Below are positions 12,104 through 52,512 of a DNA stretch of 64,000 nucleotides, piece by piece (the stretch's first letter is position 1; each line of letters opens with the position of its first letter). The position numbers were made by a program, and so were the translations under genes. The notes beneath the pieces are model-generated. The model was not told where the DNA came from. It made no database searches and was given only the letters and a program-made list of their open reading frames with translations. This DNA comes from an uncultured Pseudomonadales bacterium (GTDB taxonomy: Bacteria > Patescibacteriota > Microgenomatia > UBA1400 > PJMF01): contig CAYOIJ010000003.1 of NCBI GenBank assembly GCA_964404025.1, positions 10,727 through 74,726 on the forward strand, read 5' to 3'.

Positions 12104-12152
12104 AAACGAGCATTATACCAGATTTAGCAAAAAAAATCACTTATAAATCTGA

Positions 12153-12740
12153 CTATTTTGCTGTTTTTTTACTTTTTTGTTTATCTTTACCACTAATGTG
12201 CTCTACCTTGGTAACAATACCATTAAAAACCGCTTGAACACTCTGTTCACCATCAACTACCGCCAAATGCTTTCGTTCAGAGTAATAGTCCAGCACTTTT
12301 GAAGTTTTTTCATGAAAAAGGTTTATTCTTTTTCTAATGGCCTTCAGCGTTTCATCCTCTCGGTCAGCTTCTCGACCGGAAATTCTCCATAAGGCTTCTT
12401 TATCTGATACATCAATCAAAATTACAATTTCTTCACCTTTAGTAAATTTGTTAAAGGCTTTAGCTTGAGGGACAGTTCTCGGAAAACCGTCCAGAATAAA
12501 ACCCTTTTCATATTCAGGTTTTTTTAAATATTCAATGACTATCTCCAGGGCTTTATCGTCAGGAATTAGAAAGCCAGCATTAATTGTTTCTTTAACCCAA
12601 CGACCCAAAGCTGTTTTGCTCTTTGTCATTTGTCTAAAAATATGTCCAGAAGACAAATAGGGAACATTATATTTTTCTGATAGTAAATTACCTTGCGTGG
12701 ATTTACCCGCTCCCTGAATACCAATTAAAACTAATTTCAT
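12153..12740 (-). CDS. adk: adenylate kinase, short type without a zinc LID insert
   Basis: P-loop GIQGAGKSTQ; 195 aa. Confidence 0.9.
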   Translation of the reverse strand: MKLVLIGIQGAGKSTQGNLLSEKYNVPYLSSGHIFRQMTKSKTALGRWVKETINAGFLIPDDKALEIVIEYLKKPEYEKGFILDGFPRTVPQAKAFNKFTKGEEIVILIDVSDKEALWRISGREADREDETLKAIRKRINLFHEKTSKVLDYYSERKHLAVVDGEQSVQAVFNGIVTKVEHISGKDKQKSKKTAK

Positions 12741-12763: not shown

Positions 12764-14059
12764 TTAACTTAATTTTGTATAACGATCGTAATTTTCACTT
12801 AATAATTGAGACTCAACTTGTTTGGCTGTTTCTAAAATTACAGAAACCACAATCAATACGCTTGTTCCTCCCACAGCTAAAGCTTGAATATTGGTAAGCA
12901 TCTGGGCGATCGTGGGTAAAACAGCAATTGAAGCTAAGAAAAGTGCTCCAGCAAAAGTAACTCTTGTAACAACAAATTCTAAATATTTACGAGTCGGACC
13001 TCCAGGCCTAATTCCAGGAATAAAGGCTCCGCTCTTTTTTAATTCGTCACTAATGTCCTCAGCGTTAAAGAAAATAATGGCACTAAAATAACTAAAGACA
13101 AAGACTAAAACAAAATAAGTAATCAAATACCAAATGCTAGTAGGAGAAAAAATAAGGTTTAAGCTCTCTCCCAAGTTAACAAGAAACTCTCGGCCACTAA
13201 GAGTTAAAACACGGCCCAAAAAAGGTGGCAACATCATTAGGGAAACCGCGAAAATAATGGGCATTACTCCGGCTACATTAACCTTGATTGGTAGATGACT
13301 ACTTTGTCCTCCAACCTGTCTACCTCCTTGAATACGCTTAGCATATTGAATATTAACTTTACGCACCGCCTCATTGAAAAATACAACTAAGGCAATTACT
13401 GCTAAAGTTAAAGCTAAAATAACCAATACAACTGTTAATTGTCCACCATCTCCAATTAAGAATGATTGACCTATGCTAGCAGGAATCTGACTGACGATGC
13501 CTACTAATAGAATCATTGAAATACCATTGCCAATTCCATATTCAGAAATTAACTCACCCAACCACATGATTAACATCGAGCCTCCGATTAAAGTTAAGAT
13601 CACTATCGCCATAAACGCAGGTTGAGTATTAACTAACAAACCCTGAGAATTAAGTAAAGCCAAGGTGGCCACGGCCTGAACAGCCGCCACTGGAACAGAA
13701 ATAATGCGCATGTATTGATTAAGTTTGGCTTGACCAGCCTCTCCTTCTTTTTGCATTTCTTTAATCTTAGGAATCACCATTCCTAAAAGTTGCATAACAA
13801 TAGAGGCTGTAATATAAGGATTGATGCCTACCGCCACAATTGAAAATCTAGCTAAGGTTCCACCAGCAAATAAATTTAGAAAACTTAAAAATTGATTCGA
13901 AGCAAAAATTAATCGTAGGCGCTCAACATCTACGACTGGAACAGGAATGTGGGCAAGTAATCGACTGACAGCAAAAATGCTTAGAGTAAAAATGAGCTTT
14001 TTTTTAAGCGCTTGATTGGAAAAAATGGCCCGAATCTTTTTAATTATTTGTTCTAGCAC
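12764..14059 (-). CDS. secY: preprotein translocase subunit SecY
   Basis: It is a 431-aa polytopic membrane protein with SecY-family sequence, at the canonical position between rplO and adk. Confidence 0.92.
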   Translation of the reverse strand: MLEQIIKKIRAIFSNQALKKKLIFTLSIFAVSRLLAHIPVPVVDVERLRLIFASNQFLSFLNLFAGGTLARFSIVAVGINPYITASIVMQLLGMVIPKIKEMQKEGEAGQAKLNQYMRIISVPVAAVQAVATLALLNSQGLLVNTQPAFMAIVILTLIGGSMLIMWLGELISEYGIGNGISMILLVGIVSQIPASIGQSFLIGDGGQLTVVLVILALTLAVIALVVFFNEAVRKVNIQYAKRIQGGRQVGGQSSHLPIKVNVAGVMPIIFAVSLMMLPPFLGRVLTLSGREFLVNLGESLNLIFSPTSIWYLITYFVLVFVFSYFSAIIFFNAEDISDELKKSGAFIPGIRPGGPTRKYLEFVVTRVTFAGALFLASIAVLPTIAQMLTNIQALAVGGTSVLIVVSVILETAKQVESQLLSENYDRYTKLS

Positions 14060-14080
14060 AAAATTTTATTTTATATATAT

Positions 14081-14518
14081 TTATTCTACTTTTCCACCTA
14101 GTGATTCAATTTCTTTTTTGGCTGCCTGACTAACAGCCATTCCTTTAACATTAATTTTTCTATTTAATTTGCCTTTTTTGATAATCTTAGCCTGCTTAAA
14201 GCGCGGATCAATTAATTTATTCAACTTTAAACTATCTAAGCTAATTTCCTCTAAATCCATGGTGTTTAAATCATTAAAAGTTAGCTCTGCTGTTAAGTTA
14301 AGGGTTTTAAAACGCCCCTTACCTCGCCACATTGGTAGGCGTTTAGTTAAAGGCAGAGAACCACCTTCAAACCATAAAGGAATCTTTGAACCCCTTCTAG
14401 ATTTTTGGCCTTTTTGACCTCGACCAACTGTATGGCCCCCCTTGCCTGAACCATAACCACGACCCAAGCGCTTAGCAGATTTGGAGTTAGTTTTTTTAAG
14501 TTGAGTGAGTAATGACAT
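14081..14518 (-). CDS. rplO: 50S ribosomal protein L15
   Basis: L15 family, GRGYGSGKGGHTVGRGQKGQKSR. Confidence 0.92.
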   Translation of the reverse strand: MSLLTQLKKTNSKSAKRLGRGYGSGKGGHTVGRGQKGQKSRRGSKIPLWFEGGSLPLTKRLPMWRGKGRFKTLNLTAELTFNDLNTMDLEEISLDSLKLNKLIDPRFKQAKIIKKGKLNRKINVKGMAVSQAAKKEIESLGGKVE

Positions 14519-14520
14519 AT

Positions 14521-15243
14521 TTAGCTTTTTGCTTTTGCTTTTACTTTGGTTTTTGGTTTGGGAGTTGAAGTTTTTTTCTTAATCGAAGTTTTCTTCTTAG
14601 ATTCAACCTTGTCTTTCTTTTGGAGCTTTTTTTTAGCTTGAGCTTTGCCTTGTTCTTGAGCTTGAGCCTGTTTCTGAACTTGAGCTTTTTCTTTAGCTTC
14701 TGCTTGAATGGCAGCTATTTTTTGACGCTCCTCTGCTTCTATCTCAGCAATGGAACGCAACTTAATACCTTTAATTTTAACTAAATTAGCAATGTGCTTT
14801 AGAGCTTTAAAGGTAGCATGAACACTAGAGGCCTGATTATCACTACCCATAATTTTAGCAACCACATCTCTAACTCCCGCAACTTCTACCACTGCTCTAA
14901 CTGGGCCTCCAGCTATTACTCCAGTACCTTTACTGGCTGGCTTAAGCATTACTCTTCCAGCTCCTCGTTTAACAGTTACTGCAAAAGGAATTGTAGTCCC
15001 ATCGAGCGGAACTATAATCATTTTTTGTTTAGCTTTTTTAACCCCTTTTTGTATAGCTGATAAAACATCAGTTGCTTTACCCAAACCCACTCCAACCTTG
15101 CCTTTTCGATCACCAACTACTACTAAAGCTGAAAAACCAATTTTGTTTCCTCCTTTGGTTTTTTTGGAGACTCGAGAAATTTGAATAACTTTCTCGTCAA
15201 ATTCTTTGGGTTGATTGTGTTTTTGAAAATTATTTCTTGCCAT
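14521..15243 (-). CDS. rpsE: 30S ribosomal protein S5, with a long Lys/Ala-rich C-terminal extension
   Basis: The S5 core is followed by ~80 aa of QAQAKKKLQKKDKVESKKKTSIKKK... It lies immediately upstream of rplO, with no rpmD between them. Confidence 0.92.
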   Translation of the reverse strand: MARNNFQKHNQPKEFDEKVIQISRVSKKTKGGNKIGFSALVVVGDRKGKVGVGLGKATDVLSAIQKGVKKAKQKMIIVPLDGTTIPFAVTVKRGAGRVMLKPASKGTGVIAGGPVRAVVEVAGVRDVVAKIMGSDNQASSVHATFKALKHIANLVKIKGIKLRSIAEIEAEERQKIAAIQAEAKEKAQVQKQAQAQEQGKAQAKKKLQKKDKVESKKKTSIKKKTSTPKPKTKVKAKAKS

Positions 15244-35828: not shown

Positions 35829-36824
35829 TCAACGCAAGTATTGATTTACATTAGCATTGTGACCCTCAAGAGTCTCTGCTATATGAATTTTACCAGATAA
35901 ATCATGGATATAATAAAAGGCGCTTGTTGATTGGGGCGTAAGTACAGCTTCAATCGCTGTCAAACCAGGATTACAAATTGGTGAGGGAGGTAAACCAATC
36001 TTTTGGTAGGTATTAAAAGGCGAATCTAAATTTTTATCTGCTGCAGTGGGAGTGGGCCACCAGTTTTGTTCAGCACTACTATAAGCTTTTATATATTGAA
36101 GCGTTGCATCAACCTGTAGGGGCATTCCAATATCTAATCGATTGAATAAAATACCAGCAATTAGTGGCATCTCAGCATCATTAGCACTTTCTCTTTGCAC
36201 CAAAGAAGCGAGGGTCAAAATTTGCTTTAAGCTTAATTCGCTATTATTGATATCATCATCTAAAACTAGAAGTACTTTATTTTCAAAAGTGTTGTGTAAA
36301 AGATTAAGCAAAGCCTCAGCACTAATACTTTTTGATACTAAATAGGTGTCTGGAAACAATTGTCCCTCTAAGCCACTGCTTAGCTTAAGAAAATTTTCCT
36401 CATCAAAAGCATTTAGGTCTTGTTTAGATAAGCTTGTCGCTATTTCTTCACGCCGCCAACCTTCTGGAATAGTAATCCATAAATCATCAGTTCCTTTAGT
36501 TAAAGATTGAGCCAACTCCCAAGTTGATGAGCTTGGTGAAAGCTTGAATGAGCCTGCTTGAATTTTATTTTGTAAGCCTCTTTGGTAAACCACTCCACGG
36601 AAAACTAAGCCAGAACGAACTAAACCTGCCTGGCGAAGCCGTTGAGCAATTTGCTGAGTTGCCTGTCCCTTGGGAACGACAAAGGTGATAGTTGTTCGAT
36701 CACTGCTGTCCACTGGTCTTAATAAAGATAATACAGTTACAGAGACGGAAATAGAAATAAGCAAAACAGCAAGTAAAATAACTCTAACAAATTTGAAATT
36801 TTTTTTAGAACTTGGGAGTGGCAT
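35829..36824 (-). CDS. mltG: endolytic murein transglycosylase MltG/YceG family
   Basis: It has an N-terminal TM anchor and YceG-like sequence (...GLPPSPICNPGLTAIEAVL...). It shows the conserved alaS-ruvX-mltG neighbourhood. Confidence 0.8.
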   Translation of the reverse strand: MPLPSSKKNFKFVRVILLAVLLISISVSVTVLSLLRPVDSSDRTTITFVVPKGQATQQIAQRLRQAGLVRSGLVFRGVVYQRGLQNKIQAGSFKLSPSSSTWELAQSLTKGTDDLWITIPEGWRREEIATSLSKQDLNAFDEENFLKLSSGLEGQLFPDTYLVSKSISAEALLNLLHNTFENKVLLVLDDDINNSELSLKQILTLASLVQRESANDAEMPLIAGILFNRLDIGMPLQVDATLQYIKAYSSAEQNWWPTPTAADKNLDSPFNTYQKIGLPPSPICNPGLTAIEAVLTPQSTSAFYYIHDLSGKIHIAETLEGHNANVNQYLR

Positions 36825-36843: not shown

Positions 36844-37245
36844 CTAGCATAAATCTAAATAGTTTTCGAGAATAAGTGCAGCAGCATAATGATCAATGGC
36901 TTGGCGTCTATTTTTTTTTGGCAGGTCTTTAAGCTTTTCTTCAACCTCATAAGATGAAAGCGTTTCGTCTGCCATAACAATCTCAACATCCAATAAAGAT
37001 TTTAGATAATTAAAAAACTTTATCGTTTGCTCTGCCATCTTAGATTCAGAAAGCCCAATAACAATTTTCTCTACTTTTTCTTTTTGGATAACTGCCTGTA
37101 TTTCTTCGAGAGCTCGAGGACCAATAGGCAATTCATGACCGAGCAAATCATTTTTTATTACTTTGAGAGGTTCAACTAAACCCACAAAAGAAATAGCTAA
37201 GCCAATCCTTGCTAAACCATAATCAATTGCTAAAATTGTTGGCAT
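36844..37245 (-). CDS. ruvX: putative pre-16S rRNA nuclease / Holliday-junction-resolvase-like YqgF (RuvX)
   Basis: MPTILAIDYGLARIGLAIS, a RuvC-like fold with an N-terminal catalytic Asp; 133 aa. Confidence 0.8.
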   Translation of the reverse strand: MPTILAIDYGLARIGLAISFVGLVEPLKVIKNDLLGHELPIGPRALEEIQAVIQKEKVEKIVIGLSESKMAEQTIKFFNYLKSLLDVEIVMADETLSSYEVEEKLKDLPKKNRRQAIDHYAAALILENYLDLC

Positions 37246-37260
37246 TTCTACTAGATTATA

Positions 37261-38217
37261 CTAGTCTTTTATTAATTGTGCTGTTACTACCCCGCGACGT
37301 AAAGTAGTCCCCTCAGGAGTACAAGTCACTAACTTCAACTGACGCACATCGTAGCGTTGAGCTAAAATAAAGGTGTCATCTGGCTTAACCTCTGTCTTGC
37401 TTTGCACAATGTAAGTATATTTAACATTATCATGAGTTAAATATATTTTTTCTCCTCTTTCCAGCAACATAATTTTGCTAAAAATAGAAGTATAGCGACG
37501 AGGGTTATTTTCACTAGGATTGTAGAATTGACGCAAAACAGAATGGCCAAAAAGCACTGGTGAACCCAATTGTCCTGGTAGACCAGTACCAGGATAATGA
37601 ATTAAGCTCTGGTTAAGATCTGTGCCTCCAACCCTTACTTTCGCATTAGTAATATTTAAACTAGGAATATCTAAAGTATATTCAATAAATTCACTTTTAT
37701 TTAATTCTGGAACATCGAGCTCACTACTAAACCAATTACTTAAGTCAGTAAAATCAAGAGCCTGATCTAAAATGACTGGTCCATTTTCAGCACTCTTATT
37801 TGCCTGGCTTTCTTCAAGATCGACCTGAGCTTGAGCGGAAATAAGAGGCGTACTAAGTAATAATTGGGAGTGTGGAACCGGGGACAATAAGGCTAATTTT
37901 TCTTGTTTATTCCAGGGTAAATAATATTCTATCAGAGGCCAAAGCGCAGATAAGGCTAGAACTAAGCCAAAAGCTATTAATGCCAAAGGTAATAAAGTTG
38001 CCCCAAATCTAATTCTTCTTGGCAAACGTCGCCAAAAATTTAATTTAATTTGTTTGTCCAAAACCTGTTCTTCTTTACGACTAACAACGTCTTGTTTTAA
38101 AAAATAATTAACTTTTTTATTCAAATCTTGAATAGCCACCCCTTCCTTGAGAGCTTGACGGTAAAGCTTTAGAATTTGCTTTTTTTGCAGAGATGGTTGG
38201 GAATCTTTTTTGGCCAT
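37261..38217 (-). CDS. sortase-family transpeptidase (membrane-anchored)
   Basis: It has one TM helix. The catalytic His is in LFGHSVL, the catalytic Cys is in the TLxTC-like LKLVTCTPEG, and Arg follows (RRGVV). It lies 5 nt downstream of the 747-aa gene. Confidence 0.75.
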   Translation of the reverse strand: MAKKDSQPSLQKKQILKLYRQALKEGVAIQDLNKKVNYFLKQDVVSRKEEQVLDKQIKLNFWRRLPRRIRFGATLLPLALIAFGLVLALSALWPLIEYYLPWNKQEKLALLSPVPHSQLLLSTPLISAQAQVDLEESQANKSAENGPVILDQALDFTDLSNWFSSELDVPELNKSEFIEYTLDIPSLNITNAKVRVGGTDLNQSLIHYPGTGLPGQLGSPVLFGHSVLRQFYNPSENNPRRYTSIFSKIMLLERGEKIYLTHDNVKYTYIVQSKTEVKPDDTFILAQRYDVRQLKLVTCTPEGTTLRRGVVTAQLIKD

Positions 38218-38222
38218 AGGAA

Positions 38223-40466
38223 TTAATTAATAACAAAATTAAAACGAGCAGTGTTTTTTGGTAACTTTTGCACTAGCTTGGACAAAAATTCTGGTTGATA
38301 TACTATTTCTGCTTTGCTTATTAATTCTTGGTCTTCTAGATTATTTTCTGCTTCTTCAATGCTCTTGCCAACTAATAAGTCTGTCAACGACTCTTCATCA
38401 ATATTTGCTCTAGATTTAGCTGATAACTCTGTACTTAAAATTAAACGATTACTGTCATCTTCAGTCGGAACAGCTCGATCGCTTAGTAGTGATGGCTCTT
38501 CATCAACAAATTCATAATTTTCTGGCAGATCCATAAGCAAAACTGCTCGCGCCAACTGTTTCAAGTCACTAGATAAATATTTGACGGCCTCAACTTCTAA
38601 ATTCATTTTTAAAGAAAGAGTTTCCACCTCGTCTCCCTCTTCGTGATCATATTCAAAAAAAGTAATACGACTCTTATCACTTGCTACAAAATAAACACCA
38701 TCTCTAGACTCTTCAGCAAACTCATCTTTAGCAATTTCGTTTAAACTTGTTCTTAATTGACTCAGTAAATTTTCTAAATCCTCTTTGGAAACCACTCTCA
38801 CCTCTCTACTAGAACCACCAGAAAAATTTTCAAGAGCAGTAGCTGAATAGGTATCTTCACTAAAATCTGCAACTTTTAATTTACTATCTTTTTCAATATT
38901 GGCGTCTGCTCCTATGTCTTTAGCAACCACCATCGCTTCTTTACTCCCATAATTCATTCCAGCACCACCCTCTTCTTCTTCAGCAGCAGCTACTATTACT
39001 TCTTCCTCAAATTCAAACAAAACACCCTCGTGCTCCAAAGTTGTACTAGCAGCAAAAGTTTTTTCACTAGAAGTCTTATTAAATAATTTAATCTTTCCCT
39101 TAGCTTTTTCTCCTACTAAACTAATACCAGTTGTACTTAAGCTGTCTTCACCGCTAATTTCTTTTTTTACTAATGACGCTTTGAGTAAATTTTTATTATA
39201 ATCAGATTCTGCTAGTTGAGGATCAAGAATGATATCGAGATTTTTTTGCAGTATTTGTTCGTCCGCTTTAATTCTGACTGTTATATTCGATAAGAAAAAA
39301 CTAAAAATAAGTAGAATAATCGTTAGAGCTAATAGACCGCTGCTAACTCCAATTATTAATGATTTACGATTTTTTCTTAAAAAACGAGCTAAAGGAGTCA
39401 TTTTTTTTATTTTTTCTGGGTTTTTTGTTAATACGGGTTTAACAACTTGATGATTTACTTGATCGGGATTAAATTCTTTCAATTCTTCAGATTTAAAATC
39501 AGTGAATTGAGCTCTATTATTCTCTTCATCCGCCTTGACTTTATCAGAAGCGAAATCAATACCAAAACTACTAATTTTTTGCTCTTCACTCTTTACCTCA
39601 ACTTCATTTGCTAAATTATTTTCCAGATCAGTACCTTTTTCAACACCATGAACTATGCTTAAATCCTGATCAAGTTTAGATCTGAAGTCAGTTGATAGCA
39701 TATGACTGGCTGCTAAACTTAGAGACTTAATTAAAAAGTCTATTTCTAAAACTACAAATTGTGGTGCTTGTAAAAAACCACTGACTTTTGTCCAATCAAA
39801 GGCTTGCAGTTGTGACTGCTCCTTTTTTAAAGATTTTTGACTAAGATTTAATGAGGTCAGAAAAAGTTTGTTGGGAAAATATTTGCCCTGTTCTCCTAGC
39901 TCTTGGCTAACTCTTGCTAAACCCTCTTGTAAATCGTCAGTCAATTTTGCTGATCTACCAACTCGAAGATTAAGTAATAATTGACCATGTTTAATCAAAA
40001 TTAAATCAAAATCTCGCTCACGCAAATAGATAGTGAGGGAAGAGTCACGAGGATCATTAATAATCCGAGATCTATGAATTCCCTCACTTACACTCATTTG
40101 TCCCAAAGCAGATAGGCTTAAACTTTCTGATAATTCTTGAACTATGACTTTTTTACTATCTAATAATTCACCATCTTTCAACCAAGACTCATCAAAAATA
40201 AAAACACAATCTGCTACTTCGTCTGCTAATAATCCCAAGTCTTGTAGTGACTGGTCGAGTTGAATTAACAAATCTTGACGATCAAAATAAGTTTTAATTG
40301 CAGAATACTCTTTAATTTCTTGCTTCTTATTAACTAAAGCGCTCTGCAACTCTTGATCACTTAAAATGATAGAAATAAATAATTCCTCATGATTAAGGTT
40401 CTCAGTTAGATCATGATGCTTCTTTTCTTTTTTTCTCTGAGTAAATTTTTTCAATAAATTGGGCAT
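38223..40466 (-). CDS. uncharacterised 747-aa bitopic membrane protein. It has a ~370-aa cytoplasmic N-domain, one TM helix, and a ~350-aa acidic extracytoplasmic C-domain. It is the first gene of the sortase operon.
   Basis: The single hydrophobic segment is LIIGVSSGLLALTIILLIFSFFL at ~aa 372-394, after a basic stretch KNRKS. The N-domain has a weak actin-fold/PilM-FtsA-like feel (LILIKHGQLLLNLRVGRSAKLTDDLQEGLARV), but no recognisable motif could be confirmed by eye. Confidence 0.5.
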   Translation of the reverse strand: MPNLLKKFTQRKKEKKHHDLTENLNHEELFISIILSDQELQSALVNKKQEIKEYSAIKTYFDRQDLLIQLDQSLQDLGLLADEVADCVFIFDESWLKDGELLDSKKVIVQELSESLSLSALGQMSVSEGIHRSRIINDPRDSSLTIYLRERDFDLILIKHGQLLLNLRVGRSAKLTDDLQEGLARVSQELGEQGKYFPNKLFLTSLNLSQKSLKKEQSQLQAFDWTKVSGFLQAPQFVVLEIDFLIKSLSLAASHMLSTDFRSKLDQDLSIVHGVEKGTDLENNLANEVEVKSEEQKISSFGIDFASDKVKADEENNRAQFTDFKSEELKEFNPDQVNHQVVKPVLTKNPEKIKKMTPLARFLRKNRKSLIIGVSSGLLALTIILLIFSFFLSNITVRIKADEQILQKNLDIILDPQLAESDYNKNLLKASLVKKEISGEDSLSTTGISLVGEKAKGKIKLFNKTSSEKTFAASTTLEHEGVLFEFEEEVIVAAAEEEEGGAGMNYGSKEAMVVAKDIGADANIEKDSKLKVADFSEDTYSATALENFSGGSSREVRVVSKEDLENLLSQLRTSLNEIAKDEFAEESRDGVYFVASDKSRITFFEYDHEEGDEVETLSLKMNLEVEAVKYLSSDLKQLARAVLLMDLPENYEFVDEEPSLLSDRAVPTEDDSNRLILSTELSAKSRANIDEESLTDLLVGKSIEEAENNLEDQELISKAEIVYQPEFLSKLVQKLPKNTARFNFVIN

Positions 40467-40558
40467 ATTTTTTGAATAGTAAAAGACTGGGTTAAATTAA
40501 ACCCTCACTTATATTAAAGCAGAGTTTCAGTTAATTTTGAAGAACTGAGTGCTTGTTA

Positions 40559-42463
40559 TTATCTGAAACGAATATAGATCCGTCTAATTCCTTGAGCTAT
40601 AGCCTGTTCTTTAAAAATTTCCAATTCTCCAAGACGAGCTATTTGCGAGGTGTGCTCGACGTGAGGTCCGCCACAAAGCTCCTTTGATATCCAATTTTGC
40701 TTATCACCAATAGTATAAACTTTTACTTTTTGTGGATAACGTTCAGCAAAAAAAGCAATTGCACCAGACGCTAGAGCCTCTTCTTTAGACATTGTTTCGC
40801 TAGACACCTGCAGATCATCTTCAAGCCACTGATTTAATAATTTTTCTATTGATTTGAGTTGCTCATCACTAAGTGATTGATGATAACTAAAGTCGAAACG
40901 AAGGCGATCACTACTAATGTTCGAGCCTTTTTGCTGTACTTCATTACCCAAAATTTTTCTTAGAGCAGCTTGCAGCAGGTGAGTAGCTGTATGAAAAGCA
41001 GTGGTTTTGGCATCTTGATCAGCCAAACCTCCTTTGAATTTTTTCTGAGTAGTCTGCCGAGATAATTGCGCATGTTGGCTGCGTTTTTCAACAATTTTAT
41101 TTTCAATTTGATCTTCAAGTGCAATATTCCTTGAATTAGCCTCTTCAATGGATAATTCAAAAGGAAAGCCATAGCTCTCATACAGTCTAAAGGCTAGTTC
41201 AGCTGTTAATTGATCTTTATTTGCTATTAAACGATTAAACTCTTTTAAACCTCTGATCAAAGTTCTATTGAATTTTTGCTCTTCAGTTCTTAAAACATTG
41301 CTAATCAAATCTTTTTTCTTTAATAAGTCAGGATAAAAATCTTGATAAAGTGCCAATATGTCTGGCACGATTTCCGTCACAAAATTTTCTTTTAAATCTA
41401 GATGTCGAGCCTGCCTCAAAGATCGTCTAACTAAACGACGTAACAAATAGCCTTGTTCTTTATTGCTAGGCAAAACTCCATCACCAATTAACATCACGCT
41501 GGCACGAATATGATCAGCAATAATACGAAAAGCCGGCTTATACTGTGAATTTTGATATTCTTTAGCACTCAATTTAACTAGTTTATTAATAATGTTTGAA
41601 AAAGCACTGGTTTGAAAAATATCTACCTGGTTTTCTACTGCTGCTAATAATCGCTCTAAGCCTCCACCAAAATCAATATTTTTTTGCTCTAATTCTTTAA
41701 AACCGTCTTGATCACGCTGATATTGCATAAATACACTGTTACCGATTTCTAGGAAACGACCACAGTCACAATTAATGTGGCAAGGCTGACTGGCAAACTT
41801 AGAATGTTGGTGGATGTCAACATTAGACTCAGAATCAGTGAAATCATAGAAAACCTCACTGTCTGGCCCACCCAATTCACCAATAGGCATTTTGGATGGT
41901 GCACCAGACCTTGACCACCAATTTTTCTCTTCATCATAGAAAAATATTCGACCTCCTTGTAGTCCCAATTGAGGCCTATCAATAATTTTAGCTTCAACAC
42001 CTCTCTCTTGGAATAATTTTTGCCAAATGTTTGCTGATTCATTGTCTTTGGGAATATTAAGTTCTTTCTTGCCTGCAAAAACTGATACATAAAGACGCTC
42101 TGGCTTTAGCTTGAGAACATCAACTAAAAATTCAAAACAAAAATTAATTTGCTCTTTTTTAAAGTAGTCACCAAACGACCAATTGCCCAACATTTCAAAA
42201 AAAGTTGTATGACGATTGTCACCCACTTCTTCAATATCTTCACTGCGAAAACATTTTTGTGAATTAACTATTTTTTTACCAAGAGGATGATTTTGGCCAA
42301 AAAAATAAGGAATCATTGCTTGCATACCAGCACTGGTAAATAAGGTCGTCGGATCATTTTCTGGCACTAAACTTGCTGAAGGTACAATAACGTGACCCTT
42401 AGCAATAAAAAAATCTAAGTATAAGCGACGTAAACTAGATAAGGTTAAAGAAGAATGAGACAT
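40559..42463 (-). CDS. alaS: alanine--tRNA ligase, short form of 634 aa. It lacks the C-terminal C-Ala domain.
   Basis: The N-terminus is LYLDFFIAKGHVIVPSASLVPENDPTTLFTSAGMQ. The editing-domain motifs HTATHLL and CGGPHV are present, and the protein ends shortly after them. Confidence 0.88.
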   Translation of the reverse strand: MSHSSLTLSSLRRLYLDFFIAKGHVIVPSASLVPENDPTTLFTSAGMQAMIPYFFGQNHPLGKKIVNSQKCFRSEDIEEVGDNRHTTFFEMLGNWSFGDYFKKEQINFCFEFLVDVLKLKPERLYVSVFAGKKELNIPKDNESANIWQKLFQERGVEAKIIDRPQLGLQGGRIFFYDEEKNWWSRSGAPSKMPIGELGGPDSEVFYDFTDSESNVDIHQHSKFASQPCHINCDCGRFLEIGNSVFMQYQRDQDGFKELEQKNIDFGGGLERLLAAVENQVDIFQTSAFSNIINKLVKLSAKEYQNSQYKPAFRIIADHIRASVMLIGDGVLPSNKEQGYLLRRLVRRSLRQARHLDLKENFVTEIVPDILALYQDFYPDLLKKKDLISNVLRTEEQKFNRTLIRGLKEFNRLIANKDQLTAELAFRLYESYGFPFELSIEEANSRNIALEDQIENKIVEKRSQHAQLSRQTTQKKFKGGLADQDAKTTAFHTATHLLQAALRKILGNEVQQKGSNISSDRLRFDFSYHQSLSDEQLKSIEKLLNQWLEDDLQVSSETMSKEEALASGAIAFFAERYPQKVKVYTIGDKQNWISKELCGGPHVEHTSQIARLGELEIFKEQAIAQGIRRIYIRFR

Positions 42464-42485: not shown

Positions 42486-42842
42486 CTAAATACCTTTAAA
42501 TTGATTCTTTTTTTCTTGTCTTCGTAAACGCTTGCGTGTTTTTTCTTTATTCTTTGATCTCTCTAGCTTTGATAAAACTAAAGATAAATTATTCTTAAAT
42601 TCAAATAGAGAGTTCTTAAGTTGTGAGTAATATCTATCTTTTACTTCTTCTAAAGATAGGTTTGGATTATCAATCAAATTTTTTTTATATAAATCAAGAC
42701 GAGCAGCTTCCCAATCTTTCGCTAACTTTTTCCAGGTTTTCTGGCCTTGTTCACTAGAAAAATAAGTAATGACACTACCTAAAGAAAACCCTATAGCTAA
42801 ACCCGATAAAAAGCCATTAGCTTGCTGCTTATCTTCTGTCAT
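42486..42842 (-). CDS. YtxH-like small membrane or stress protein
   Basis: The N-terminal GFLSGLAIGFSLGSVITYF motif is typical of YtxH (DUF948-partner) proteins. It has a basic coiled-coil C-terminus. Confidence 0.45.
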   Translation of the reverse strand: MTEDKQQANGFLSGLAIGFSLGSVITYFSSEQGQKTWKKLAKDWEAARLDLYKKNLIDNPNLSLEEVKDRYYSQLKNSLFEFKNNLSLVLSKLERSKNKEKTRKRLRRQEKKNQFKGI

Positions 42843-42845
42843 TTT

Positions 42846-43181
42846 TTATTTTTTCTTTTTGCTTAATGGGCTTTGATCCTGTTTTTTTGAATCGTCCTCA
42901 CGATGACGATTTAACCAAGCCATAAAACCTTCGGTTACTTTTAAACCAGCAGTAAAATTAGTAATAAAAGCACTTAAACTATGAAAAGGATTAAGGATGC
43001 CTTCAATTTTGTTTTGAGTTGTATCAACTACTTGATTGGCTTTATCAATAACTTGATTAAATTTTTGTAAAGAATGCTTGATCTGACTCAAAACCATAAT
43101 TAGCTTGATAGCTAATATAACTAGTACCACAGTTAAACTAGCAACAGAAATAGTTAGAACTAAGGGTAAAATCTCTGACAT
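42846..43181 (-). CDS. DUF948 (YtxG)-like membrane protein
   Basis: It has an N-terminal TM helix and then a coiled coil (QKFNQVIDKANQVVDTTQNKIEGIL). It is adjacent to the YtxH-like gene, as in Firmicute ytxGH. Confidence 0.45.
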   Translation of the reverse strand: MSEILPLVLTISVASLTVVLVILAIKLIMVLSQIKHSLQKFNQVIDKANQVVDTTQNKIEGILNPFHSLSAFITNFTAGLKVTEGFMAWLNRHREDDSKKQDQSPLSKKKK

Positions 43182-43250: not shown

Positions 43251-43934
43251 TTAATAATCAATCTGAATGGTTCGCTGAACGACACTTGTTTTACCTCGCT
43301 CATCAGTCGCTTTAATTGTAATAGTGGTCGGTCCTTCAATATCATAATAAAGCTCGGTGTTAAAAAAACCACCCGCCTGCAATGCTACAGGCTGTGCATT
43401 TACTAAAACACTGGCATTCATTATTGTTTGGCCTTCAACTACTACTCTGGCTGCGCTAATATCACCATCTTTTGGTTGGAACACTTCTAGACGCGGTGGC
43501 CTGCTTAAAGAATACCATTGCCAGGCCGCATAAGTTAAAAAAATTAAAAAAACACTGCTAATAAACAGGATGGTTAAACGCACCGGAGAAAATAAATTTG
43601 TTTTCTTAAAAGAATCGCGTAGAAATTCTCTGGGCAATAGGCGCCCCTTAGCACTTTCTTGGTAATCTCTGCGCAAGATCGCTAATAAAGGTCTTGGATT
43701 AACTCCAAGTAATTTAGCATAATTGCTAATGTAGGCTTTGGCATAACTAGCATTTGGTAAAATAGCAAAATCATTTTTTTCAATTGCCTGAAGATAACTC
43801 AGCTTGATAAAAGTGCTGTCCGCAATATCTTTCAACTCTAAACCAGCTGCTTTTCGATGTTTAATCAACAAATCACCTACAGTTTGCGTTTTAATCGTTT
43901 GACTCATTAGGCCAATTCTAGAAAGAATTCTCAA
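43251..43934 (-). CDS. RodZ-like cytoskeleton-associated protein (N-terminal HTH, TM, C-terminal beta domain)
   Basis: It has an XRE-like HTH (TVGDLLIKHRKAAGLELKDIADSTFIKLSYLQAIEKN), a single TM helix, and a C-terminal DUF4115-like region. Confidence 0.6.
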   Translation of the reverse strand: MRILSRIGLMSQTIKTQTVGDLLIKHRKAAGLELKDIADSTFIKLSYLQAIEKNDFAILPNASYAKAYISNYAKLLGVNPRPLLAILRRDYQESAKGRLLPREFLRDSFKKTNLFSPVRLTILFISSVFLIFLTYAAWQWYSLSRPPRLEVFQPKDGDISAARVVVEGQTIMNASVLVNAQPVALQAGGFFNTELYYDIEGPTTITIKATDERGKTSVVQRTIQIDY

Positions 43935-45745: not shown

Positions 45746-46231
45746 TTAGTTTTTGAATTTAAGGCTTAGACCTAAGCCAAGCGCTAATATCCCTAAAGCA
45801 AAAATTATAATTGTATTCTCTAGAGCACCTGATTCTGGCAGAGTTGTTTTCGCAGAGGGGGTACTCATGCTAGCCACTTCTGACACATTCACGACTAAAT
45901 CTAGTGATTCGCCAGCAGAACTAACTACCAAATTATTGTTCCCGTAAGCAACATCGCTAAAATTAACCCCCCAACTACCCAAAGAATCAGCGGCAGTATT
46001 ATTGTTCAAATCCCCAAGCGCTACTCGCACCTCAGCTGAAGGAGAAGCAGTTCCTCTGACGGTAAAGCTTGTTAGGGTAGTATCATAAGTTTTCACTGTA
46101 GATCCCAAACCCACAATTGAATCGTTACCTCCTATGGCATCAATCGTAAGAGCGCTGGCAAACACTGGTTTAATCAAAACAAGAGATAAAAACAAAAAAA
46201 ATAATAGGGCAATTTTTGTGATTTTTTTCAT
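45746..46231 (-). CDS. small secreted surface protein with a C-terminal LPESG sortase sorting signal (paralog A)
   Basis: Signal peptide MKKITKIALLFFLFLSLVLIKPVFA. The C-terminus is TTLPESG-ALENTIIIFALGILALGLGLSL-KFKN: motif, hydrophobic segment, then a basic tail. Confidence 0.7.
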   Translation of the reverse strand: MKKITKIALLFFLFLSLVLIKPVFASALTIDAIGGNDSIVGLGSTVKTYDTTLTSFTVRGTASPSAEVRVALGDLNNNTAADSLGSWGVNFSDVAYGNNNLVVSSAGESLDLVVNVSEVASMSTPSAKTTLPESGALENTIIIFALGILALGLGLSLKFKN

Positions 46232-51993: not shown

Positions 51994-52512
51994 CTAAAAT
52001 TGCTTTGCTTGAAGTGCGAAGCCCAAACCAATACTAAGCATAGCTAAAGCCAAGAATATAATAGTCGTAGTAGTTGAACCAGCTTGTGGCAAAGTTCCAT
52101 CCGAAGCACTGGCTATTGCTTCTGTTGATGCTGTTGACCCTGTTGCTTCAGTACTATCACCAATAGTTAAAACAAAATCTAGTGTTTCTGCTCCAGATTC
52201 TAAATTAAACTGATGCCTGCCCTCAGTTAATGATGACACCAAATTAGTCCAACCCCCCTCTGCATCAGCTGTCGCAGTTTGTGTTGAATCATCAATTAAA
52301 ATTGATACGGTGGCCGAAGGAGAAGCTAAACCTGTTAATTCAAATGTGCCACCAGAATAAGTGTAGTTCTTTAAACTGCCTCCTAGATCTAGTCCCGAGA
52401 CATCTATGGGTCCTAAGCCCGTAATCTTTAAAGAAGCAGCCGAAACTTTTTTGACAAAAAGCAAGGGAAAGAGAAGTAATAAAAGTACAGTGCTAATAAA
52501 AAATTTTTTCAT
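51994..52512 (-). CDS. small secreted surface protein with a C-terminal LPQAG sortase sorting signal (paralog B)
   Basis: Signal peptide MKKFFISTVLLLLLFPLLFVKKVSA. The C-terminus is GTLPQAG-STTTTIIFLALAMLSIGLGFAL-QAKQF. It shares blocks with paralog A (GLASPSATV / GTASPSAEV; ETLDFVL / ESLDLVV). Confidence 0.7.
   Translation of the reverse strand: MKKFFISTVLLLLLFPLLFVKKVSAASLKITGLGPIDVSGLDLGGSLKNYTYSGGTFELTGLASPSATVSILIDDSTQTATADAEGGWTNLVSSLTEGRHQFNLESGAETLDFVLTIGDSTEATGSTASTEAIASASDGTLPQAGSTTTTIIFLALAMLSIGLGFALQAKQF

Follow-up and report, generated by a model that had tools for sequence, protein, structure and literature searches.

The closest described counterparts of the protein studied here are GspL and the PilM-PilN pair, in which, as in this protein, one transmembrane (TM) helix links an actin-fold domain in the cytoplasm to a domain on the far side of the membrane. 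In pilM-pilN the actin-fold gene lies directly before the gene of its bitopic partner or overlaps it, an arrangement shared by the unfused relatives described below. Another precedent is SafA, which partners SrtA, the housekeeping sortase of actinobacteria. It is a small transmembrane protein that, like the protein studied here, is genetically linked to a sortase, and its conserved FPW motif mediates the interaction with SrtA (PMC9282373).

Here we describe a 747-residue bitopic protein encoded directly upstream of a sortase gene in a window of 64,000 nucleotides, by which we mean the whole stretch of DNA that was analysed. The best overall explanation, which we hold with moderate confidence, is that it acts as an envelope-spanning coupler, with the sortase as a plausible, lineage-specific client.

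Architecture of the 747-residue protein

The open reading frame given in the initial annotation is real, with an ATG start and 747 codons in the translation of the window, and it lies on the minus strand, which had been left unstated. The start codon is supported by the conservation of the N-terminus MPNLL. The gene and its parts are as follows:

38223..40466, minus strand: bitopic membrane protein, 747 aa plus stop (open reading frame list and translation)
39681..40385, minus strand: cytoplasmic actin-fold (ASKHA) domain, aa 28-262, a minimal core with degenerate motifs
39375..39680, minus strand: low-complexity cytoplasmic linker, aa 263-364 (low pLDDT, variable alignment columns)
39552..39572, minus strand: short linear motif SSFGIDF, aa 299-305, within the linker (near-invariant alignment columns)
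39291..39374, minus strand: basic juxtamembrane KNRKS, aa 365-369, and single TM helix, aa ~369-392 (hydropathy, charge bias)
38226..39290, minus strand: extracellular domain, aa 393-747, with a beta-hairpin stalk, a beta-barrel and alpha/beta subdomains
38793..39134, minus strand: Baseplate_J-like beta-barrel core, aa ~445-558 (profile matches)

Searches of the protein against Pfam, NCBIfam and PHROGs gave no significant match, with NCBIfam matches at chance level only, and the domains were assigned from homologues, from profiles and from the predicted structure. Of the 52 homologues found, most are full length, and the two nearest share 100% and 78% identity with the protein; alignment statistics are drawn from 35 aligned homologues, and the genome scan from a 15-sequence alignment. 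The fused family amounts to about 1,500 clusters at 50% identity (1,505 representatives, E<=0.001), and among the 150 representatives listed most are 690-825 aa long, with the domain N-terminal. The earlier description of the protein as uncharacterised holds only in part, as one partial homologue is named 'baseplate J/gp47 family protein' at NCBI.

The bitopic layout that had been proposed, with KNRKS followed by one TM helix, is borne out on several counts. The one strongly hydrophobic segment of the protein lies at aa 370 (Kyte-Doolittle 2.68, best 19-aa window), the TM segment is kept in 35/35 aligned homologues, and the mean flanking charge is +3.9 on the N-side and +1.4 on the C-side, a positive-inside bias which fits an N-in/C-out topology.

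What had been called a 370-aa cytoplasmic domain is indeed on the cytoplasmic side, but it consists of a folded domain of 235 aa (aa 28-262) and a linker of ~100 aa. The folded part has the two lobes of an actin fold, that is, two RNase-H-like subdomains, and PilM is among its top structural matches, which bears out the PilM/FtsA-like character suspected earlier. Its link to FtsA and PilM is indirect: neither PF14450 (FtsA) nor PF11104 (PilM_2) matches the protein in Pfam at E<=1, and the connection runs through hhalign to FtsA/PilM_2-positive proteins encoded by neighbouring genes. With only ~235 aa, the domain is missing 1C and most of 2B, and hhalign found no counterpart to the large insertion of the separate ATPases, the 1C (SHS2) insert of FtsA/PilM. 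The phosphate-1 (DxG), phosphate-2 (DxGGGTTD) and adenosine (GGG) motifs are absent as well; in a profile-profile alignment the DIGTE, DvGGGTTD and CGGG of the ATPases fall on non-conserved, non-Gly/Asp positions, for example YLRERDFD. As it has neither the 1C insert nor the ATP-binding motifs, the domain is most likely a non-catalytic module for docking or oligomerisation. Judged by these motifs, ATP binding and ATPase activity would have been lost, and the cytoplasmic domain of GspL likewise does without nucleotide binding. From aa 262 the pLDDT of the predicted model falls below 50, and the alignment columns of the linker are mostly gaps or variable, with the exception of SSFGIDF, whose G302 is invariant in 35 sequences and which takes the forms SFGI, DLGF and FGF in homologues.

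The ectodomain comprises 355 aa with a net charge of -34 and carries AAAEEEEGGAG at aa 493-503, so the strongly acidic character noted earlier is correct for this protein. As a family trait, strong acidity was rejected, since net charges across homologues range from -45 to +6; it is lineage-specific. A motif search found no [LI]Px[TSA]G in the protein, whose sole TM helix is central rather than C-terminal. The earlier statement that it has no sorting signal was thus correct, and a role as a sortase substrate was rejected.

The ectodomain has a Baseplate_J beta-barrel fold. Over the barrel stretch the family profile matches two PDB entries, diffocin TRI-2 (8v3w_E, E 0.002) and Mu gp47 (9ki1_H), and the core carries the motifs TTGxxLVGEKAKG, DIGAExN and FSGGSSRE. 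PF04865 is matched by 29/35 homologues at E<=1 (best E 9.5e-8) and phrog_6, 'baseplate wedge subunit', by 3/5 (best 8e-10), but the protein itself matches neither. The likeness is confined to ~100-150 residues; in the comparison with baseplate proteins it spans ~120-150 residues, and the global rmsd is very large. These matches raise the question of whether the protein belongs to a phage or contractile-injection-system baseplate, as a prophage remnant or a tailocin part, a reading that we consider extremely improbable: only the barrel is shared, with no match to the helical core bundle that wedge proteins have; tail, sheath, tube and other baseplate genes are absent from the window and from all related loci; and the gene sits in a housekeeping block, alaS-ruvX-mltG-rpoB, that is conserved in 72 species. 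A phage origin was rejected on this context and on the fact that no relatives were found in viral contigs. A literature search for 'baseplate J' together with CPR terms found no paper carrying that term.

Unfused relatives and the inherited gene block

The gene belongs to a tight string of housekeeping genes, whose other members, apart from the sortase, are:

40559..42463, minus strand: alaS, 634 aa (short form), upstream of the gene (PF01411, PF07973)
36844..37245, minus strand: ruvX, 133 aa, in the same tight string (PF03652, E 4.5e-24)
35829..36824, minus strand: mltG (YceG), 331 aa, last of the string before rpoB (PF02618, E 3.7e-74)

The gene and the sortase lie between alaS and ruvX. Synteny extends over 72 species-level loci, and the whole block is inherited synteny. 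The gap after alaS is 92 nt in the window and has a median of 86 nt across loci, and the gap from sortase to ruvX has a median of 9 nt. Promoter and terminator scans gave chance-level results (33 found against 28.9 expected, and 6 against 5.0) and for that reason were not used to define an operon.

In Dojkabacteria-type relatives the two halves of the protein are separate, abutting genes, one for a canonical FtsA/PilM-like ATPase and the other for a bitopic baseplate-J-like protein. Word-indexed profile searches with the N- and C-domains returned few proteins, mostly fragments, yet unfused relatives were among them, and we find unfused modules in five CPR loci (L072, L080, L081, L082 and L083). 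The separate ATPases are 412-434 aa long and FtsA/PilM_2-positive, and their genes overlap, abut or lie within ~160 nt of the ectodomain gene, whose product carries a globular N-domain of ~75 aa. The fused N-domain aligns to them in hhalign over 227 columns (probability 97.3%, E 2.1e-11), and a W...F...P motif and an MxNL(P)F N-terminus are common to both. Since this alignment ties the fused domain to the separate ATPases, the protein is a Rosetta-stone fusion, and we hold its architecture and its origin from two proteins with high confidence.

The separate ATPases also bear on what the module might do, as they match both PF14450 FtsA, under the NCBI name 'cell division FtsA domain-containing protein', and PF11104 PilM_2, with one of them named 'pilus assembly protein PilM'. 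The first match invites the reading that the protein is an FtsA-derived division or elongation anchor. It, or the unfused pair, would connect the wall with some cytoskeletal or divisome element, much as FtsA-FtsN, MreB-RodZ or MreB-MreC do, and the sortase would be a mere neighbour. The basic, amphipathic-looking C-terminal tail of the L083 ATPase (GIKGKFDKLLRV) speaks for it, as do the wall and division genes in the neighbourhood (mltG, a gene for a RodZ-like HTH_25 protein, and FtsK) and the family's seemingly widespread, vertical inheritance across related genomes. Nevertheless, we judge this anchor to be unlikely, given that ftsZ or dcw genes are adjacent in none of the loci, that the fused domain is without 1C and most of 2B, the partner-binding surfaces of FtsA, and that the junction with the sortase is the tightest of the block and is never broken.

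The second match, together with an architecture that matches GspL and the abundance of type IV pilus genes in CPR genomes (PMC6744442), would favour a type IV pilus-like or filament assembly platform, that is, a PilM-PilN fusion analogous to GspL and serving a pilus or secretion machine. In ~80 loci, however, no pilB, pilC, pilO, pilD or pilin genes lie nearby, apart from a T4SS-pilin-like ORF ~5 kb off in L072; there are no Pfam T2SSL or PilN matches, and the protein no longer has the ATP-binding site, which PilM keeps. A pilus platform is hence very unlikely. The Pam pilus system of CPR, which is built from donor-strand-exchange pilins and membrane-anchored chaperones, was also considered and rejected as unrelated, having no sortase or actin-fold component (bioRxiv 10.64898/2026.03.03.709456).

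The sortase and its junction with the fused gene

The features on which a link to the sortase would rest are the following:

38218..38222, minus strand: 5-nt spacer TTCCT between the stop codon TAA of the 747-residue protein and the sortase ATG (sequence read)
37261..38217, minus strand: sortase, 318 aa (PF04203, E 1.2e-18)
45746..46231, minus strand: candidate sortase substrate, 161 aa, with signal peptide, LPESG, TM helix and KFKN tail (motif scan, translation)
51994..52512, minus strand: candidate sortase substrate, 172 aa, with signal peptide, LPQAG, TM helix and QAKQF tail (motif scan, translation)

The initial annotation had placed the sortase 5 nt downstream, and this agrees with the sequence: TAA is followed by TTCCT and then by the ATG of the 318-aa enzyme. 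The sortase has a cytoplasmic N-extension of ~65 aa, a TM helix and a catalytic domain with GHS, LVTCTP and RRG, and it stays under the cut-off of every NCBIfam sortase class. The two LPxxG proteins of the window are paralogous and, from their motifs, are plausible substrates.

It had further been suggested that the protein is a dedicated partner of this sortase, for example a scaffold or platform on which LPxxG proteins would be anchored or polymerised. On this reading, scaffolding the adjacent enzyme would be its primary function, and the two would form an obligate complex. Part of this picture stands. The sortase follows directly, with no gene ever in between, in every one of the 67 related loci where both genes were located. 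The gap has a median of 2 nt and stays within +/-10 nt in 87% of them, overlaps of the forms ATGA, TAATG and GTGA are frequent, and the adjacency is also kept in homologues that share 20-25% identity and have different outer flanks. The sortase is probably co-translated with the fused gene in Microgenomatia-type genomes. Its cytoplasmic N-terminal motif L..LYR.AL, conserved in Pacebacteria-type loci, could dock on a cytoplasmic partner, candidate substrates are at hand in the window, and SafA provides a precedent. Mirror-tree distance matrices, too, give this pair the highest correlations of the block (raw 0.84, partial 0.62).

Other parts of the picture did not hold. The mirror-tree margins are small, with partial correlations of 0.58 for the protein and MltG and 0.56 for sortase and MltG, and in the distance-matrix test the sortase did not stand out. 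Close spacing by itself counts for little in so compact a block, because the sortase-ruvX junction is almost as tight although RuvX is an implausible functional partner, and the block as a whole is inherited synteny of unrelated housekeeping genes. Short sortases that adjoin fused genes are without the N-terminal motif. No sortase was found in the fetched flanks (+/-7 kb) of ectodomain relatives, whether or not these have a separate ATPase, either in the five CPR loci or in the high-GC, non-CPR-like L077/L079; in L083 the order is alaS-ATPase-ectodomain gene-ruvX-mltG. Occurrence without a sortase in relatives, which had been named beforehand as counting against the partner idea, is thus seen for the relatives of the ectodomain, and the partner conserved across these lineages is the actin-fold protein. 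For these reasons, a dedicated sortase platform appears improbable to us.

Proposed role and comparison with known systems

In the coupler explanation that we prefer, the protein is a type-II (N-in/C-out) fusion of proteins that are separate in sister Patescibacteria lineages. Its first half is an FtsA/PilM-type actin-fold protein pared down to a 235-residue core, and its second half a single-pass membrane protein whose external domain of ~355 residues is built on a Baseplate_J/gp47-type beta-barrel. One TM helix would then connect the actin-fold module in the cytoplasm with a scaffold outside the cell, in the zone of the wall, and in this way an envelope activity on the outside could be positioned or organised from within the cell. 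This module is a vertically inherited housekeeping component within the alaS...ruvX-mltG block, while the sortase, and hence the anchoring of LPxxG proteins, would be a lineage-specific client and not the original or defining partner.

The reading frame, the topology signal, both folds, the fusion/fission relationship, the synteny and the junction statistics are observations, while the loss of ATPase activity, the mechanism of coupling and a link with the sortase, be it physical or functional, are inferences. By analogy with GspL or PilM-PilN, a coupler-type mechanism is about evenly balanced in our estimation. The sortase is a plausible client because in Microgenomatia-type genomes its gene comes directly after the fused one, with probable co-translation, but this part of the explanation is possible rather than probable. 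A more specific version, which must be called tentative and on balance rather unlikely, would have an FtsA/PilM-derived pseudo-ATPase with a baseplate-like ectodomain recruit or position the housekeeping sortase, with docking through the SSFGI linker motif and the LYRxAL of the sortase, so that anchoring would be directed from the cytoplasm, possibly at sites of wall growth or division.

A large part of bacterial diversity falls within the Patescibacteria, and no role has been assigned to the majority of the conserved envelope proteins in this group. As the fused family is found throughout Microgenomatia-type genomes and within a housekeeping block, it probably belongs to the core of envelope biology in these bacteria. 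A sortase is reportedly near-ubiquitous in Microgenomates, according to Méheust et al., and the protein would be a candidate organiser for it; if it does position the sortase, a previously unrecognised envelope-spanning machine would exist in Microgenomatia-type Patescibacteria. The fusion origin also points to a concrete interaction, namely that of the ATPase with the neighbouring membrane protein in Dojkabacteria-type genomes, and the ectodomain shows a phage-type Baseplate_J barrel put to use as a cellular, membrane-anchored domain.

While coupling of the GspL or PilM-PilN kind offers a structural frame for the protein, each of the known systems differs from it in important respects. SafA, compared here by its description only, shows no apparent relationship to a two-domain protein of 747 aa (PMC9282373). 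In place of the periplasmic domain expected of a PilN/GspL type, the ectodomain combines a Baseplate_J-type barrel with alpha/beta subdomains; Pfam T2SSL, PilM_2 and PilN matches are lacking, as are secretion or pilus ATPase and platform genes nearby (in the block of the window and ~80 loci), and where PilN has a short peptide, the unfused partners have their globular N-domain of ~75 aa. Compared with the Baseplate_J/gp47/gpJ wedge proteins (PF04865) and the GlxA beta-barrel, the protein has no tail genes around it and is membrane-anchored, extracellular and set in a housekeeping context. Finally, in contrast to FtsA, it has neither the 1C (SHS2) subdomain nor any of the three nucleotide-binding motifs, adjoins ftsZ in no locus, and has its actin-fold domain covalently joined to a large external domain.

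Topology and chromosomal setting of the membrane protein

The bitopic protein X is encoded in a Patescibacteria (CPR) housekeeping region of the window, which has a GC content of 36%. The labelled relatives come from Pacebacteria, Woesebacteria, Levyibacteriota and Roizmanbacteria.

Gene order on the minus strand of the window
Upstream part: AAA/Lon-lid protein, UDG, RNase J, FtsK, 161-aa secreted protein, yqeY
Next: RodZ-like HTH_25 protein, two small membrane proteins, alaS, X, sortase
After the sortase: ruvX, mltG, rpoB, rpoC, then ribosomal-protein operons
X itself: 38223-40466, minus strand, 747 codons with an ATG start

The initial annotation had described a 747-aa reading frame with a basic KNRKS stretch and one TM helix, an acidic external domain containing AAAEEEEGGAG, no LPxTG signal and a sortase gene 5 nt downstream, and this description as a whole was confirmed. 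There is one strong TM segment (top 19-aa hydropathy window 2.68, at aa 370); the helix spans aa ~369-392, just after KNRKS (aa 365-369), and was found in 35/35 aligned homologues. The mean flanking charge in the family (+3.9 on the N-side vs +1.4 on the C-side) fits a predicted N-in/C-out topology. The C-terminal 355 residues of X carry a net charge of -34, with AAAEEEEGGAG at aa 493-503, but family-wide the values for the ectodomain run from -45 to +6, so the family is not defined by acidity. A search of X for an LPxTG-like motif found none, and its stop codon is separated from the ATG of the sortase by TTCCT.

Several features of the neighbourhood were recorded alongside. At 634 aa and without a DHHA1 match, the window alaS (40559-42463, minus strand) is a short form, and it is similar in the CPR relatives inspected (loci L073-L076 and L083); a high-GC locus, L079, encodes 920 aa with DHHA1. 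Upstream of alaS, most related loci carry a RodZ-like protein and two small DUF948/YtxH-like membrane proteins (window 42486-43181); the C-terminal domain of the window's RodZ-like HTH_25 protein (43251-43934, minus strand) matches Glucodextran_B (E 1e-7). The 92-nt alaS-X spacer holds a weak terminator-like hairpin (40489-40504, minus strand; GGGTTTAATTTAACCC, then a T-rich tail), a type of site occurring at chance frequency in the region overall. Despite unmistakable Patescibacteria synteny, many of the loci L001-L072 have unreliable record titles, among them 'uncultured Pseudomonadales', 'Vitreimonas sp.', 'Methylococcaceae' and, for CP011212.1, 'candidate division TM6'; such titles are probably placeholders or mis-assigned MAG taxonomy.

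Domain structure and origin by fusion

X itself has no match in Pfam, NCBIfam or PHROGs, and its domain assignments derive from homologues, profiles and predicted structures. The PilM/FtsA-like actin-fold character earlier proposed for the N-domain was borne out by AF2 modelling from an alignment of 25 sequences (block-mean pLDDT at least about 90 over aa ~31-260, below 50 from aa 262 on), with which Foldseek returned 809 PDB matches at E<=0.001 in the same actin-fold superfamily. With ~235 aa the domain is a minimal core; the segment originally singled out (aa 155-177) is the beta-hairpin of its second lobe. Since the family alignment has no conserved Asp/Gly at the phosphate-1, phosphate-2 and adenosine positions, X has presumably lost ATP binding. 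Within the otherwise unconserved, low-confidence cytoplasmic linker lies a short SSFGI motif (aa 299-305; window 39552-39572, minus strand) that looks like a docking peptide; it reads DLGF or FGF in distant homologues, and G302 is invariant in 35 sequences.

The ectodomain was modelled with very high confidence (mean pLDDT 91.5), and the sequence evidence, though indirect, agrees with the model. PF04865 (Baseplate_J) matches 29/35 homologues (best E 9.5e-8), phrog_6 'baseplate wedge subunit' matches three, and one partial homologue is named 'baseplate J/gp47 family protein' by NCBI; the family profile also matches the baseplate proteins TRI-2 of diffocin (E 0.002) and Mu gp47 over the TTG...FSGGSS stretch. 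That X is a phage-derived baseplate protein is effectively excluded by the housekeeping context and by the lack of relatives in viral contigs.

An exhaustive N-domain profile search (E<=0.001) gave 1,505 representatives of 50%-identity clusters. Most of the 150 matches listed are 690-825 aa long with the N-domain at the extreme N-terminus, the remaining ones being shorter and probably fragments; the fused architecture is thus a large, stable family. Among more remote relatives of the ectodomain, the two halves are separate genes. In loci L080 (Dojkabacteria by NCBI naming), L081, L082 and L072 (Dojkabacteria), a 412-419-aa gene lies directly upstream of a 567-657-aa bitopic baseplate-J-like gene, abutting or overlapping it in L080-L083 and ~160 nt away in L072. 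The upstream ATPases carry canonical DIGTE, DVGGGTTD and CGGG motifs and match PF14450 FtsA and PF11104 PilM_2. Locus L083 bridges the fused and unfused forms: there a short, CPR-type alaS is followed by the genes of the ATPase (434 aa) and the bitopic protein (564 aa) and then by ruvX and mltG, a slot identical to that of X but split in two. By hhalign, the fused N-domains align with the separate ATPases (probability 97.3%, E 2.1e-11, 227 columns); both have a W...F...P motif, and in X the 1C insert has been deleted along with part of 2B. The N-termini also correspond (MLNLPF/MFNLPF in the ATPases vs MPNLL/LPNLF in X). Together with the gene pairs and the L083 slot, these alignments identify X as a two-gene module fused into one Rosetta-stone protein.

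Unfused ectodomain proteins (coordinates within each related locus)
L080:7001-8704
L081:7001-8854
L082:7001-8830
L083:7001-8695
L077:866-2836

These proteins have in common a ~75-aa cytoplasmic N-domain (e.g., KIVVGKDDELTDIV...LLTFAEESDLL...), which has no Pfam match, may be a docking site for the neighbouring ATPase, and was removed by the fusion. The L077 relative (67.5% GC over the locus, ~1.8-Mb genome) does not look like CPR, with a full-length alaS including DHHA1, plus metH; its order is alaS, a ~660-aa protein (small N-domain, TM helix, ectodomain) and ruvX. Separately, the unfused-module locus L072 encodes a T4SS-pilin-like ORF (12141-12569; PF18895, E 1.4e-6) downstream of groESL and clpB.

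Linkage to the sortase

Besides a TM helix, the 318-aa sortase following X (PF04203, E 1.2e-18) carries the catalytic signatures GHS, LVTCTP and RRG. We scanned one genome per species, yielding 72 loci in which neighbours were identified by phmmer with window proteins. Most keep the order yqeY, RodZ-like, p111, p118, alaS, X, sortase, ruvX, mltG, rpoB, sometimes with extra genes inserted, and the sortase is the next gene after X in 67/67 loci where both were found.

Gene junctions in the scanned loci, with start codons picked heuristically (median gap; within +/-10 nt; interrupted)
alaS to X: 86 nt; 3%; 6/63
X to sortase: 2 nt; 87%; 0/67
sortase to ruvX: 9 nt; 55%; 3/64
ruvX to mltG: 52 nt; 8%; 15/59

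From these gaps and the common ATGA, TAATG and GTGA overlaps at the X-sortase junction, X probably heads a tight X-sortase-ruvX unit, of which that junction is the tightest. The adjacency is kept at 20-25% identity in Woesebacteria-type loci with different outer flanks. The sortase also has plausible local substrates, two paralogous small secreted proteins without Pfam matches, each with a signal peptide, beta-rich body, LPxxG motif, TM helix and short tail; on these sequence features both are likely substrates.

45746-46231, minus strand: 161 aa, LPESG
51994-52512, minus strand: 172 aa, LPQAG

The initial annotation suggested that X is a dedicated partner of the sortase, for example a scaffold or platform. 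The adjacency stood, but three observations speak against dedication, which makes a dedicated sortase platform a less likely rival reading. No sortase lies in the fetched flanks of the unfused and non-CPR-like relatives (L083 and L077 included). The sortase-ruvX junction is almost as tight, though ruvX is an implausible partner, and distance-matrix correlations controlled for alaS do not discriminate the pairing (X-sortase 0.62, X-mltG 0.58, sortase-mltG 0.56). According to Méheust et al. [quoted passage not shown]

Two further sortase features were noted. At its N-terminus the window sortase carries a cytoplasmic extension of ~65 aa (aa 1-65; 38023-38217, minus strand) whose L..LYR.AL..GV.L motif is at least 90% conserved in 44 Pacebacteria-type loci (among L002-L061) and is lacking in L069, L071, L073, L074 and L076, where the sortase beside fused X is short (221-253 aa); a conserved domain on the cytoplasmic side seems unusual in this enzyme class. 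Just after mltG, L076 carries a second sortase gene (222 aa) and a 268-aa protein without a Pfam match (13418-14969), which may be an additional sortase-substrate pair.

A proposed coupler and its known counterparts

The best-supported reading is that X is a transmembrane coupler of GspL or PilM-PilN type. In the cytoplasm, a presumably non-catalytic actin-fold module would connect through a flexible linker, with SSFGI as its single invariant short motif, and a lone TM helix to a scaffold outside the cell that is built around a protein-protein-interaction barrel. Three things suit a core, surface-exposed envelope component: the housekeeping setting, an inheritance that appears vertical across many related genomes, and the speed at which X evolves (mean Kimura distance 1.41 vs 0.57-0.95 for neighbours). 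For such a coupler the sortase is a plausible client in Microgenomatia-type genomes; actinobacterial SafA, a genetically linked membrane partner of the housekeeping sortase, is a precedent (PMC9282373).

We found no published description of the X architecture or of its linkage to a sortase. Less likely rivals are that X is an anchor for division or elongation, derived from FtsA and without relation to the sortase, or part of a pilus platform. X has the actin fold, but three features that define FtsA/PilM proteins are missing from it, namely nucleotide motifs, 1C insert and Pfam match. It has the GspL-like architecture but neither the GspL/PilN-type ectodomain nor the corresponding gene context. 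The CPR 'Pam' pilus of a recent preprint is a different system. With Baseplate_J proteins it has the barrel in common but not the tail-cluster context. Overall, the kinship of X is with bitopic actin-fold couplers; our structural and evolutionary picture of X is solid, but its function is inferred.
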